DNA of 42,876 nt. Source: Candidatus Doudnabacteria bacterium RIFCSPHIGHO2_01_FULL_46_14. Its GTDB lineage: Bacteria; Patescibacteriota; Doudnabacteria; UBA920; 2-01-FULL-46-14. This document shows, one piece after another, positions 29,808 to 39,429 of the stretch; within the stretch, counting starts at the first letter, position 1, and the number at the start of each line of letters is the position of its first letter. A program made the translations under genes and the position numbers. The stretch is taken from the NCBI GenBank assembly GCA_001779925.1, contig MFEK01000016.1, positions 464-43,339 of the forward strand. The letters are read 5' to 3'. Below the pieces are notes generated by a model. That model had not been told where the DNA came from, did no database searches, and worked only from the letters and a program-made list of their open reading frames with translations.

Positions 29808-29858
29808 ATTATAGCGAAACTAGGCAGTCTTGACAATTCCGCCCAAAAGTGCTAGGAT
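29808..29858. promoter_or_regulatory. back-to-back promoters with overlapping -35 boxes
   Basis: plus: TTGACA(29830)-17-TAGGAT with TG extension; minus: TTGTCA(29836)-17-TATAAT(29813-29808). Confidence 0.7.
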
Positions 29859-30112
29859 TGGTGGTCAATAATGATCCCAAATTTGATACACTAAAAAACC
29901 AGCTTTTCTCGCAGGAAAGAATCAGCAAATGTGCCGGTTCTCTCCGGCTAGAGAAGAGAAAAAAATCCCTAGCCTGAACTTTAAAAACTGAAAATAATGG
30001 ATCAATTCTTTCTTCCCTAACCGATGCAGTTACAACCTGCGTCCGGCAAGCGATTTTCGTTTTCCGAGCGCAGGTTGTAACTAACTGCAAAAACGGAAAG
30101 AAAGGAAAAAGT

Positions 30113-30418
30113 ATGGAAAAATCGGAAGACACGGGCAGACCATACACCGGTTATGTTATCGGATCACGACCAACTCCAGGTGGCCCAATTTGGCGCCTGA
30201 GAATTGAGACTGGTCCAAAGCTGACCGGCGAGAGCGTGACAATTTTGCGAAGCAGCACGCCTCCTGACATTAAGGAGACGGCATTTGCGAAGTTCAATGT
30301 CACGACCATTGGTAAGCCCCCCAACGATCAAGACTTCGCGGTCAATGTTATTTTAACGACCCGCGACAGGCAAACAACAAATGGAACGGAACAAAAGGAA
30401 GAAAAGGAGACGAAATGA
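30113..30418 (+). CDS. small beta-rich hypothetical protein, possibly OB/cold-shock-like
   Basis: AAGGA SD; YTGYV...AVNV pattern; overlaps the next gene by ATGA. Confidence 0.7.
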   Translation: MEKSEDTGRPYTGYVIGSRPTPGGPIWRLRIETGPKLTGESVTILRSSTPPDIKETAFAKFNVTTIGKPPNDQDFAVNVILTTRDRQTTNGTEQKEEKETK

Positions 30419-32112
30419 GTATGGAAGAGATTCGGAATGACGAAATTATGCAGGATTCGGACGGGGTAGTTCTCGCCCAGATTACCGCCGCGATCAGCGA
30501 CATCAACACAAAAACCGTACCGAGCATGGTAGCCAACTACGCCGGCAAGGATAGCTGGTCACTGACTTTCACGAGACTCGCGGACGATTATCGAATCGTC
30601 TGGGAAGGATACCTGACAACGTTTGCCGAGATGCGCGCCGACCGCCGCGGACGAGTCATTGAAGCGCTAACCCGCGCCGAGGAACTCCGCACCCGTCTGC
30701 AGACTGGCATTAACAACGAAAACACCCGTCTGCTAACCATCCTGAAAGAATCGCTCGCATCTGCCTGCCTTACCCGCCGCAAAAAGCTGGAAACAGCGCA
30801 GTTGGCAGCCGAAAGCCCGGCGAGCGAACCAACGGAAAAGGTTGAGATACCAACGGATGAACCGAAAGCACCGGAACCTCAGCCTGCTCCTCCGGTGGTT
30901 GACCTCGACTCGTCGCAACAGCAGCTCGCGCGCATCAACGTGGAACTCGCCGGTGATGAGAAAGCACATGTCGACCTGCCGAAACGGACGCAGAAAGCCG
31001 ATAATTTCATGGCAGCGATGGTGCTTCTCGGGTTTGCAGGCATTGCCATCGCGGTCGAAGTTCTCTCGGGCGGGTATGATATGTGGCGGGTCATGAGCAA
31101 CCCACGAATGGCGTGGGGATTCACGGCAGCGTTTCAGATTTTGCCGGTGATTCTTGCGTTTTTCCTAGCCGGGCCATTCAAGCGCTCCCACACGCACAAC
31201 CTAGCCAAGACACGGTTCCGGTCGTTGTACTCGAAAGGTCATCCGCAGGGATACAGAGTCGGCGAATTTGAGGATACAGCCCTTCTCAAGATCTTAGGCT
31301 GGCCTTTCATTGGACTGACTCTATTCCCGGTTATCTACCGGCTGTATGTTGCCACAACCCAGGATTTCGGGACAGCCGGGTTTGTATCTGCACTGGCCGG
31401 GTTCTTCGTTACTCTTACGGCGTTCGGCGTCAAATACGCTATGTCCAAAAGATATACGGACGAGCAGTACGAGCGCCTGGCGGAAAGAAAAAAGGCAGCA
31501 AAGATTGCCGAAGACGAAGAAAAAAAAGTCAAAGCTCAAGTGAAAGCCGAAGCCGCAGCCAAAGCTAGACAAGAAGAGGAAGAAAGGAAGGAGGCCGAAG
31601 CCATGGCCGCCGCTCTCCCGAAACCCATTATTCGCACTCCCCAGGAGGAATTTGACCAGTCCTTCAACGCGGCCGTCGCTGCTTACAGGAACGGGGTCAG
31701 TGCAAAGCTACAAATTGCGGGTGCGAATATCGAAAGCCGAGAAACAGCGCGGCTCGAGATTGTAGCGCTTGCCAAGCAACGCAATGAGGTTCGGGGAGAA
31801 CTCAGGGAAGGCTTCTACCATTCCTGCATCGCAGTCATGGATGGCGTCCAGGATACGCATCACGTAAAGCGAGCTCATATCCAATTCGGTAACGGCAAGG
31901 CCAGCGAGTATGACTATCTAATGTCATTCTTCGACGCCGCCGTGAAACTGCCGGATGACGAGAAGGAGATGGCTCAAATCCGTGATGGCGAGATCGAAAT
32001 CTCGCTGGATGATCCAACCGCGGGAGTTACAGTGATTGAGGACCTCATGGACGAGGCCATCGCAGCCACTGCCCGCAAAACCATCGTTCGTCCCGCAAAC
32101 GCGGTCAACTAG
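30415..32112 (+). CDS. membrane protein: coiled coil, four TM helices, coiled coil
   Basis: AGGAG SD; four hydrophobic segments; E/K/A-rich helix. Confidence 0.85.
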   Translation: MSMEEIRNDEIMQDSDGVVLAQITAAISDINTKTVPSMVANYAGKDSWSLTFTRLADDYRIVWEGYLTTFAEMRADRRGRVIEALTRAEELRTRLQTGINNENTRLLTILKESLASACLTRRKKLETAQLAAESPASEPTEKVEIPTDEPKAPEPQPAPPVVDLDSSQQQLARINVELAGDEKAHVDLPKRTQKADNFMAAMVLLGFAGIAIAVEVLSGGYDMWRVMSNPRMAWGFTAAFQILPVILAFFLAGPFKRSHTHNLAKTRFRSLYSKGHPQGYRVGEFEDTALLKILGWPFIGLTLFPVIYRLYVATTQDFGTAGFVSALAGFFVTLTAFGVKYAMSKRYTDEQYERLAERKKAAKIAEDEEKKVKAQVKAEAAAKARQEEEERKEAEAMAAALPKPIIRTPQEEFDQSFNAAVAAYRNGVSAKLQIAGANIESRETARLEIVALAKQRNEVRGELREGFYHSCIAVMDGVQDTHHVKRAHIQFGNGKASEYDYLMSFFDAAVKLPDDEKEMAQIRDGEIEISLDDPTAGVTVIEDLMDEAIAATARKTIVRPANAVN

Positions 32113-32121
32113 GAGGCGAGT

Positions 32122-37734: not shown

Positions 37735-37752
37735 CAGGAAGGAGCGCCAGTA

Positions 37753-38325
37753 ATGAATTTCACGCATATTCTTCTGTGGTTGCCTCGCGTGCTCCGCAAC
37801 GGTGGATTGCATGCAGCGAGGTTTGGACAGGTTCACATCGCCAAGACGATCTTTACGCTTCTCGTCGGGCTGTTCTTCAGCATTGTTGTCCTCGGCAGCG
37901 GTGTACTGATCGCGCGACTCGGTTACGGAATTAACTGGCCAAGCCTGATCACCGCCGGCAATTTCATCACTGCCTTTAGCGGAATGGTGGCGGGCGGATG
38001 GTTTATCTATTCGTTCACCCGCATCGGAACATTCGCTGAGGAGATAGTGATCGGCAACAGCGTCGGGCATCAATTGGTTCATGAAATAACTCGACCACTC
38101 CCAAGCACACCGGCGCAGTTGCCAATCGTGGTCACACAAGAAATGGCTAACCAGATCATGAGAATCGCGGCCACTGTGTTCGCGGTTCTGACGGCGATGA
38201 GTATTGTTGCCAGTGTCTTTCCGGTTTACCGGAATCTGACGTGGTTGATGGTTGGAGTGATGATCATCATGTTCGGCGGATTCAGATACATGTCTTCAGC
38301 ACTGAGAGGAGGTCAGCATGTCTAA
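37753..38325 (+). CDS. four-TM hypothetical membrane protein
   Basis: AAGGAG SD; four hydrophobic helices. Confidence 0.8.
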   Translation: MNFTHILLWLPRVLRNGGLHAARFGQVHIAKTIFTLLVGLFFSIVVLGSGVLIARLGYGINWPSLITAGNFITAFSGMVAGGWFIYSFTRIGTFAEEIVIGNSVGHQLVHEITRPLPSTPAQLPIVVTQEMANQIMRIAATVFAVLTAMSIVASVFPVYRNLTWLMVGVMIIMFGGFRYMSSALRGGQHV

Positions 38326-39328
38326 TGCATCTAATTCTGGTTCCCCGAGCGCTACCCCAGTGGTTCATAGCAAACGGTTTTGGAAAACCGTCGGCGCCAC
38401 GGTGCTATTCGTGGTTTACATCTCTGTTTTCCTAGTCCCCAAGCTCATCAATCAGCTCGGCGTCTACAGCGTGTTCAAGAGTGAGAAAGTAGTGAGTAAG
38501 CTGGAAACCCTGCAACAGCTGGAAAAAGCTGCTGAAGAAGCGAGAAAAAACGCTGCGGATCAACTCGCTGCTCTGATTCGAAAATACGGTGCTGAGCGCG
38601 TGAATCTCTTAGCGGCTGGTCGGGACCCTCAAGACCCAGAGATTCAGACTCTCAGTCGCAAGATTGCAGAGGCTGAAGCGCAACGACCCCTATACACGCC
38701 CCGAGTCCAGGTCGGCCCGACACTCAAAGACGACGCATGTGGTCAGCTCGATAGTTTGCAAGTGTTCGCCGCATGGATCGCTTGGGTAGTGGTGATACTA
38801 GCAAGTCTGGCACTGATCTTTGTGGGGATCAAGAAAAAATCCCTGTTATGGACTATTGCCGGTCTCGCTACGATCGTGCTGACGCTTCTTTTCGGCGGAG
38901 ATGTTACGAGGGAAGCTCTGGCTGACCCGCATCCAAACGAGAAGTGTGTGCCGCCCGGGATGCCTTCGTCAGTCCCGCCAACAACACCCACGCCAGTCCC
39001 TCCAGTACCAACAACCCCTGCCACTCCGACTCCTGGCAGACTCGTTCTGACTGTTCACAACCGTATCGGCCGGGATGTATTCATCCACTGCCAGGATATT
39101 AGCGGCGCGGACGACGGACTGGCTGGGACCCGCAGGATCAAACCAGGGTGGCATCAATGGGTGGATTTTATCAGCCCGGTGCCCTGCGAGATCAAGGACA
39201 GCGCGGGAGATGTAATGCCTGTCGTGACTGTCGCGCTCGATCCTGCTACCGGGACGAAAACCGAAACCGGTGCGCCGTTCACCGCCATCGCGCCACTTAC
39301 GGCGAACCTGGAGGTGAACGTTAACTAA
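38318..39328 (+). CDS. three-TM protein with Pro/Thr linker and C-terminal beta domain
   Basis: AGGAGG SD; overlaps the upstream gene; Cys pairs. Confidence 0.8.
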   Translation: MSNASNSGSPSATPVVHSKRFWKTVGATVLFVVYISVFLVPKLINQLGVYSVFKSEKVVSKLETLQQLEKAAEEARKNAADQLAALIRKYGAERVNLLAAGRDPQDPEIQTLSRKIAEAEAQRPLYTPRVQVGPTLKDDACGQLDSLQVFAAWIAWVVVILASLALIFVGIKKKSLLWTIAGLATIVLTLLFGGDVTREALADPHPNEKCVPPGMPSSVPPTTPTPVPPVPTTPATPTPGRLVLTVHNRIGRDVFIHCQDISGADDGLAGTRRIKPGWHQWVDFISPVPCEIKDSAGDVMPVVTVALDPATGTKTETGAPFTAIAPLTANLEVNVN

Positions 39329-39384
39329 CAATTTTTCGGAGGAAAGATTACGCGCTTTGGGAGGAGGCGCAAGCAAAAAAAAGA

Positions 39385-39429
39385 CCGGCGATTTCTCGAT
39401 TTATGAGAATTCGCCGGCTTTTTTTATTT
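39385..39429. terminator. bidirectional intrinsic terminator
   Basis: CCGGCGA-T-TTCTC/GAGAA-T-TCGCCGG with a T-run after and an A-run before. Confidence 0.75.

Follow-up and report, generated by a model that had tools for sequence, protein, structure and literature searches.

What two neighbouring operons for membrane proteins do in a bacterium of the Candidate Phyla Radiation (CPR) is the question raised by a 42,876-nucleotide stretch of Candidatus Doudnabacteria bacterium RIFCSPHIGHO2_01_FULL_46_14 (contig MFEK01000016.1, positions 464 to 43,339, or G000:C16:464-43339), here called the window. The genome, G000, comprises 1.08 Mb in 17 contigs and is 99% complete, and the window holds a T4SS_pilin array together with CPR-type housekeeping genes. 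An initial annotation, made from the letters of the window, had described the two operons as one class of RNA-regulated envelope modules of parallel design, without a named system, for host contact, conflict or defence. We found that both are conserved, uncharacterised membrane or envelope modules, specific to their order, whose seven proteins indeed map to no named family. The two are unrelated to each other and share a common expression design, and operon 2 adjoins genes of a type IV secretion system (T4SS) in most relatives, which points to a possible role in host recognition.

Two unrelated operons with a common expression design

All seven open reading frames (ORFs) were present as annotated (Table 1), and the genes recur in the same order in other genomes. 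Both operons were counted in 146 genomes, here called the order; counts such as 14/146 include G000, and the kin genomes are not independent of each other, which bears on the counts of T4SS adjacency below. Relatives of o1g3 occur in 14/146 genomes and operon 2 in about 31/146, the helical gene of o2g2 type being found in 18/146 with a 5-row profile and in 26/146 with an 86-row profile. Three genomes (G063, G046 and G116) enter the operon 2 set via a first-gene match, and two (G074 and G058, the latter at E 5e-4) mainly by architecture.

A 400-genome sample of the phylum outside the order gave only short partial matches, transmembrane (TM)-like or TPR-like, in 2 genomes each. No loci were returned by one profile search of genome contigs or by searches of viral and metagenome collections with single-protein queries, search types which reach close relatives only. 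PHROGs, NCBIfam, PADLOC and Rfam held no match for the seven proteins or the leaders, and neither Pfam nor NCBIfam held a T4SS match for the proteins. Titles and abstract openings outside subscription journals yielded nothing on these operons or on boxA-bearing mRNA leaders in CPR.

The parallel design held for the expression layout: each operon has a near-consensus promoter in which GTCAAT begins exactly 34 nt after the start of TTGACA (at 29864 and 35274), a structured leader of about the annotated 250-270 nt, and a hairpin-plus-U terminator (-23.4 and -26.9 kcal/mol; neither appears in the list of a simple scan). It did not extend to the proteins or to the leader sequences. Cross-operon BLASTP with nine proteins gave a best E of 0.007 (23.5 bits), the TM families of the two operons matched at an hhalign probability of 0.7%, and neither leader recovered the other at E <= 0.5. 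The first gene, initially described as clearly cold-shock-like in operon 2 and tentatively so in operon 1, has this character in operon 2, albeit below the Pfam cut-off, but not in operon 1, where o1g1 lacks a Pfam match and reached an hhalign probability of 0.1% against the cold-shock domain (CSD) N-termini of operon 2. What had been taken for one class is therefore two non-homologous classes, each real, conserved and equipped with structured leaders. Both operons occur together in 5 of the 14 operon 1 genomes, where about 3 were expected, so that co-occurrence shows no enrichment (G000, G074, G114, G058, which is weak, and G006); they lie no more than 5 kb apart in four of the five and on different contigs in G006.

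Operon 2 adjoins genes of the type IV secretion system

In the window, 202 nt separate the end of operon 2 from the VirB2-like pilin array. Among relatives, a T4SS pilin or coupling protein gene was found within 5 kb of operon 2 in 24/30 loci: 16/22 in the initial set (5 of the remainder were cut by contig ends and 1 was not adjacent) and 8/8 in a held-out set of loci found afterwards. As controls, 2/90 other genes of G000 led by a Shine-Dalgarno (SD) site, 6.8% of the genome and 2/13 operon 1 loci lie near T4SS genes. At least four differing contexts are involved, namely the end of a pilin array, the start of an array, a lone long pilin near ftsZ and the coupling protein gene, which five loci adjoin; many loci share one common site, ftsH-tRNA-Leu-pilin.

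In relatives, 25/25 loci with the helical gene have a multi-TM gene downstream of it, and 19/25 have an o2g1-like gene ahead of it (1 of the others has an unmatched gene, 1 is contig-cut and 4 have none). The initial annotation had made o2g3 a four-TM gene in its own right; hydropathy gave 3/4 helices, but this 190-aa protein corresponds to half of a 6-TM protein of relatives, and neither it nor o2g4 is a separate unit of the design. Residues 1-184 and 206-342 of one 366-aa protein of G077 align with o2g3 and o2g4 (E 3e-17 and 7e-7), so that, judging from the alignment, the two are halves of one multi-TM protein of relatives. Furthermore, three natural fusions of 648-659 aa unite the helical domain, at their N-terminus, with TM region and C-terminal beta domain; they were found among 120 representatives at E <= 0.001, some of which are TPR-like noise. 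The outer beta domain of the G091 homologue passes the Pfam PA-IL cut-off (PF07828; 31.1 vs 22.5 bits), and a local lectin profile matches the outer domain in several other loci.

The first protein, o2g1, has no hydrophobic signal or TM segment. Its N-terminus scores 16.3 bits (E 0.009) with Pfam CSD (PF00313), below the cut-off of 27, and three homologues reach 23-25 bits (E 2e-5 to 6e-5) against the same cut-off; in all, a CSD-like N-terminus is seen in G000 and 7 homologues (4, of which 3 match Pfam and all 4 are in the local profile, and 3 held out). The structural model of o2g1 is confident for residues 93-200 and 403-509 and not for the remainder (mean pLDDT 58), and the predicted immunoglobulin (Ig) folds superpose on macroglobulin and intimin domains with Z 9-10.5 and rmsd 2-3 Å over about 90 residues. 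The model of o2g2 is confident (pLDDT 83.5); it had no Foldseek match at E <= 0.001 (best Z 5.5) and no usable Atlas match, which is not evidence of a new fold.

Several observations were made alongside. The CSD of one operon 2 homologue weakly matches S1CSD-TOTE-2 (E 0.001). An SD-led signal-peptide gene of 240-360 aa often stands between operon 2 and the pilin array (L020:11760-12845, L021:10991-11950, L118, L125 and L177-L179), and the one scanned had no Pfam match. Larger SD-led signal-peptide or TM genes of 460-570 aa, alike in appearance, lie beside operon 1 or 2 in several genomes (L015:3056-4759, L017:10870-12498, L023:11280-12956 and L051:10130-11524). In G069 (L125:1956-5650) an SD-led trio of VWA, zinc-ribbon and Ser/Thr kinase genes is immediately upstream of operon 2.

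The leaders carry boxA-like sites

The structured leaders of the initial annotation were confirmed at z -7.5 (second run -7.8) for operon 1 and -3.1 for operon 2, about 70 nt of leader 2 (~35331-35403) being a copy of a genome-wide mobile hairpin repeat. Family leaders also fold strongly (z -1.3 to -10 in the 24 with a promoter). Both leaders of the window contain a site resembling the boxA of rRNA leaders, and the term RNA-regulated thereby gains a concrete basis. The boxA matrix was trained solely on 20 rRNA leaders of relatives, and its top match in G000 was the genome's own rRNA leader (23.9 bits), which was outside the training set. Sites of at least 10 bits were found in 12/31 family leaders, compared with 1/31 antisense and 5/408 background sequences (5/253 in the background of two relatives). 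Among the 18 leaders unseen when the idea arose, 6 reached this score (p 9e-7); in the held-out leaders it was 3/8, with 3 more at 7.6-8.7 bits and 2 without a site. A strict boxA 12-mer, defined partly post hoc, occurs in 19/31 leaders vs 3/423. We rejected the idea that boxA is a property of all SD-led genes (4/58 vs 10/316, p 0.25; 1/100 SD-led background genes).

NusB is encoded in G000, and Rho had no match over cut-off in this 99% complete genome. A helix between leader and trailer was not detected: the median z of cognate vs non-cognate duplexes was -0.1 in 23 operons and 0.0 in 29, the rRNA control giving -1.7 (13), and the 13-bp local leader-trailer complementarity of operon 1 was no better than non-cognate pairs.

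As separate observations, a 14.3-bit boxA-like site lies at ~26215-26232 (minus strand), 88 nt ahead of rnc, which encodes RNase III and may be under Nus control, and the 5' end of 16S rRNA with its boxA leader is found just before the window (G000:C16:1-470, minus strand). A conserved long-stem leader RNA with variable loop inserts is present at operon 2 loci of family f3 (L058:6785-6995, L059, L113, L175, L176 and L180) and not in the window's leader.

Promoters and translation signals

Across the 1.08-Mb genome, TTGAC..GTCAA with this spacing of 34 nt is confined to the two operon promoters, and the counts at other spacings (5 to 79) were 0-6. GTC stands at +34 of 7/104 promoter-like sites vs 0-1 at neighbouring offsets, and R-T-Y at 26/54 SD-led promoters vs 10/104 others (p 1e-7; counts pooled from G000 together with 400 kb of G058 and 400 kb of G042). 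Three of the leaders have a hairpin that starts at +34, and among homologues GTCA recurs in both families at this position, with the variants GTT, ATT and GTCG. The GTCAAT at +34 is most likely the transcript start, judging from these patterns, and a general feature of SD-led genes.

In a census based on a simple gene caller (ORFs of at least 100 aa, default starts), an SD of at least 5 nt precedes 138/984 ORFs of G000, mostly outside the housekeeping set and scattered over the genome; we take these genes to include TonB-like, STAS, and histidine and purine biosynthesis look-alikes, named from their N-termini, which is presumably unusual for CPR. The strong SD sites noted initially were found, as matches 5-7 nt long, before 6/7 operon genes, vs 4/39 other ORFs of the window; the exception is o1g1, preceded only by a weaker AAGGA. 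The 16S rRNA of relatives ends in a canonical anti-SD in 22/30 loci, the 3' end of G000's own 16S lying outside the assembly, and since relatives retain the anti-SD, the notion that SD-led genes are translated only in a host is weakened.

Operon 1 pairs a coiled-coil protein with a VWA-like protein

The o1g2-type gene for a 4-TM coiled-coil protein stands immediately upstream of the VWA-like gene in 13/13 relatives, and the pair is found at several unrelated genomic sites. Two copies among relatives are clipped by contig ends and one is broken, that of G040 (L057:7819-10875), which stops within the VWA-like gene inside a ribosomal protein region. The C-terminal domain of o1g3 reached 0.88 in ESM Atlas features to a VWFA cluster, a lead only, and no Pfam VWA match was found; the predicted structure of residues 220-429 has TM-scores of 0.50-0.54 by query and up to 0.70 by target against VWA, and a TRAP VWA match is weak (E 1.4). 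Asp231 and Asp342 are invariant in 13/13 aligned proteins, and the motif reads DxTxG; the consensus of the metal-ion-dependent adhesion site (MIDAS) is DxSxS...T...D. No acidic residue is present in the TM segment. One VWA-like homologue is labelled Bryobacteraceae and lies on a 1.9-kb contig that may be mis-binned.

The promoter that diverges from tRNA-Leu serves operon 2 in G081, G063 and G011; in G000 the promoter at this position serves operon 1. Operon 1 and its neighbours therefore look as if they had been inserted between the ancestral tRNA-Leu-divergent promoter and operon 2.

What the operons may do

We tentatively read operon 2 as an accessory for host recognition, optional to the VirB2-like pilus or T4SS, and operon 1 as a VWA-type surface cassette of its own; transcription of both would be in the manner of rRNA. 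We consider this the likeliest reading, possible but somewhat short of probable, its functional steps being our reconstruction. The 5-8-TM protein of operon 2 would carry on the outside a beta domain that evolves fast, resembles LecA in several relatives and binds host surface glycans; o2g2 would form the cytoplasmic domain of the multi-TM protein, the signal-less Ig-repeat protein o2g1 would dock on it, and the CSD or Arg/Gly-rich N-terminus of o2g1 would bind RNA, probably its own structured leader. In operon 1, the 4-TM coiled-coil protein would pair with a single-TM protein whose VWA-like domain binds metal and faces outward. Transcripts would begin at G or A at +34, protected by long hairpins, and NusB-S10 would load on boxA as on rRNA. 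Because the cell has no Rho, the effect of Nus would be other than Rho blocking, and might be faster elongation, a leader-folding chaperone or a translation gate.

A number of points weigh against this proposal. Operon 2 is dispensable for the pilus, since only about 31 of the 146 genomes carry it. The outer domain of G000's own o2g4 has no Pfam PA-IL match and reaches only E 2 with the local lectin profile, PA-IL is reached by only 1/17 outer-domain proteins scanned, and the Ig/CSD gene is missing from 4/25 operon 2 loci. Likewise, 19/31 family leaders score below 10 bits for boxA, and the two sites of the window rank in the middle, with 32 sites of at least 12 bits genome-wide. The VWA identity of o1g3 is, given its Atlas score and the lack of a Pfam match, no firmer than a lead. 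Dropping G074 and G058, members mainly by architecture, leaves T4SS adjacency in 22/28 loci and boxA in 10/29 leaders. Moreover, a single ancestral site may be the origin of most T4SS-adjacent loci, and the pilin arrays could be no more than hotspots for variable genes.

One alternative is that both operons are ordinary fast-evolving SD-led surface cassettes, operon 2 being near the T4SS only because such regions tolerate variable genes. The scattering of the SD-led class over the genome agrees with this, one ancestral placement at the common ftsH-tRNA-Leu-pilin site would explain much, and other SD-led orphans also adjoin pilins. However, four different contexts each adjoin a T4SS gene, and neither the other SD-led genes (2/90) nor operon 1 (2/13) show comparable adjacency. 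We regard this explanation as unlikely, though by no means negligible. It is also conceivable, if distinctly improbable, that operon 2 is cargo of the T4SS, with the CSD-Ig and helical proteins passing into the host and binding host RNA or membranes. Proteins with Ig repeats like those of adhesin stalks usually have to be exported, yet o2g1 lacks a signal or TM segment, operon 2 neighbours the coupling protein gene at five loci, and most Patescibacteria T4SS are without a relaxase and probably co-opted, according to one report (PMC12102498); nevertheless, the three fusions tie the helical protein to the membrane of the producer, and with the anti-SD retained in relatives the SD sites do not imply translation in a host. 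We give somewhat less weight still to a bolder variant, in which operon 2 would be a host-sensing and delivery head of the T4SS whose swappable lectin picks the host, the CSD-Ig protein and the boxA-bearing, hairpin-protected mRNA would be cargo delivered via the coupling protein, and the Rho-free Nus complex would serve as a messenger ribonucleoprotein assembly line for exported messages.

The reading closest to the initial annotation, one RNA-regulated system whose dedicated regulator binds TTGAC-N-GTCAA and controls both operons, now appears very unlikely. It could appeal to the confinement of the exact motif to these two promoters, to the proximity of the operons (<=5 kb) in 4/5 genomes with both, and to the recurrence of GTCA in homologues of both families. 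Yet R-T-Y at +34 marks SD-led promoters generally, homologues vary at this position, the operons are non-homologous and mostly found alone, and, as the operon 1 promoter occupies the ancestral site of the operon 2 promoter, shared descent explains the likeness of the two. Least credible to us is a role in anti-phage defence or conflict, with a Zorya-like membrane sensor in operon 1 and a CSD-based sensor in operon 2. The tRNA-adjacent block with a HEPN/MNT pair would suit it, the 4-TM coiled-coil protein with a single-TM partner recalls the architecture of ZorA/ZorB, and there is the weak TOTE-type match of one CSD. Against it, none of the seven proteins matched PADLOC (2023 library) at an E below 0.003, and they contain no nuclease, NTPase or other effector domain; the o1g3 TM segment has no acidic residue, and the neighbourhoods in relatives are not defence islands. 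Of the functions initially suggested, host contact is favoured over defence by the T4SS linkage and the lectin-like domains.

Relation to known systems

Operon 2 resembles Patescibacteria T4SS loci, as described in PMC12102498, in adjoining a VirB2-like array or a coupling protein gene, and differs in that no operon protein is a recognised T4SS component and in being order-specific, SD-led and present in about one fifth of genomes. In that study no PrgB-type adhesins were detected in Patescibacteria, which leaves room for unrecognised accessory adhesins. The present findings bear on the cargo of relaxase-less Patescibacteria T4SS and on host choice by epibionts, for which no canonical adhesin was found in the same account (PMC12102498). 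With a conserved core and swappable lectin-like tips, operon 2 is a concrete candidate for host recognition and could point to the hosts of this uncultured order. The resemblance to LecA/PA-IL lies in the one outer beta domain that passes the cut-off, the lectin-like domain here being instead a swappable end of a multi-TM protein; as in the Ig-like stalks of intimin and invasin, o2g1 domains have an Ig fold, but a signal peptide is lacking and a CSD-like N-terminus is present.

The boxA/Nus-controlled mRNAs described earlier include E. coli suhB, a C. koseri parE-like gene and the lambda N leader, and boxA can repress translation of mRNAs from up to 100 nt away, an action likened to that in the lambda N leader (PMC5725501); in B. 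subtilis, which can do without Rho, NusB has retained its binding to boxA (PMC13753749). With such mRNAs the operons have in common an encoded NusB and a boxA of rRNA type, placed in a structured leader at 25-210 nt from the SD-led gene that follows; they differ in that boxA heads multi-gene membrane operons and that neither Rho nor a leader-trailer helix was found. Since the genome is without Rho, the part that Rho plays in the suhB mechanism can have no counterpart here, and boxA leaders in a Rho-less cell offer a natural test of the role of Nus on mRNA where there is no Rho to block.

Operon 1 resembles MIDAS-bearing VWA surface proteins in a putative VWA-like fold and two invariant aspartates, but has DxTxG for DxSxS and no MoxR ATPase partner. 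The pairing of a 4-TM with a single-TM protein is like that of ZorAB and MotAB; unlike these, it has no OmpA/MotB domain, no TM aspartate and no PADLOC Zorya match.

Table 1 Positions of promoters, leaders, genes and neighbouring elements in the window.
Feature	Position	Strand	Description
Operon 1 promoter	29830..29858	+	sigma70, TTGACA-17-TG-n-TAGGAT; tRNA-Leu-divergent position
Operon 1 leader	29864..30112	+	249 nt from inferred start; two long imperfect hairpins
boxA-like site, leader 1	29976..29993	+	13.8 bits
o1g1	30113..30418	+	101 aa soluble orphan; homologue only in G006
o1g2	30415..32112	+	565 aa; 4 TM helices between coiled-coil-like N and C regions
o1g3	32122..33411	+	429 aa; Pro-rich N-terminus, one TM (94-112), VWA-like domain
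Operon 1 terminator-like hairpin	33451..33500	+	intrinsic type, with U-tract
Two small ORFs	33723-34305	+	117 and 78 aa, helical, SD-poor; own promoter at 33508; outside both operons
MntA-like and HepT-like genes	34367..35174	-	nucleotidyltransferase (N-terminal antitoxin-like segment) and HEPN RNase; type VII toxin-antitoxin-type pair
Operon 2 promoter	35240..35268	+	sigma70, TTGACA-17-TG-n-TAATAT
Operon 2 leader	35274..35545	+	272 nt; long stem holding mobile hairpin repeat
boxA-like site, leader 2	35445..35462	+	14.4 bits
o2g1	35546..37075	+	509 aa; CSD-like N-terminus, Arg/Asp/Gly-rich linker, tandem Ig-like beta-sandwiches
o2g2	37084..37734	+	216 aa, all-helical, conserved DE motif
o2g3	37753..38325	+	190 aa; N-terminal TM half of family's multi-TM protein
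o2g4	38318..39328	+	336 aa; C-terminal half: 3 TM, helical loop, Pro-rich linker, variable beta domain predicted outside
Operon 2 terminator-like hairpin	39376..39428	+	A and U tracts on both sides
VirB2-like T4SS_pilin array	39530..42868	-	PF18895; 6/6 ORFs over Pfam cut-off

Other elements of the window

The two operons flank a toxin-antitoxin pair, as initially annotated. This is the MntA/HepT-type pair, whose adjacent genes match PF01909/PF18765 and PF01934 over cut-off and NCBIfam models below cut-off; MNT/HEPN-like pairs also occur on the downstream side near operon 2 in G090 (L023:1946-2546) and G072 (L059:5837-6476). Past the terminator of operon 2, a copy of a second genome-wide family of mobile hairpin repeats occupies 39464-39520. 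At 29288-29690 (minus strand), a relic 5' half of a tRNA-Leu gene (~29620-29680), which a short palindrome interrupts, precedes a GIY-YIG nuclease gene, after which comes the intact tRNA-Leu(TAG); this region looks like a nuclease cassette inserted into a tRNA.

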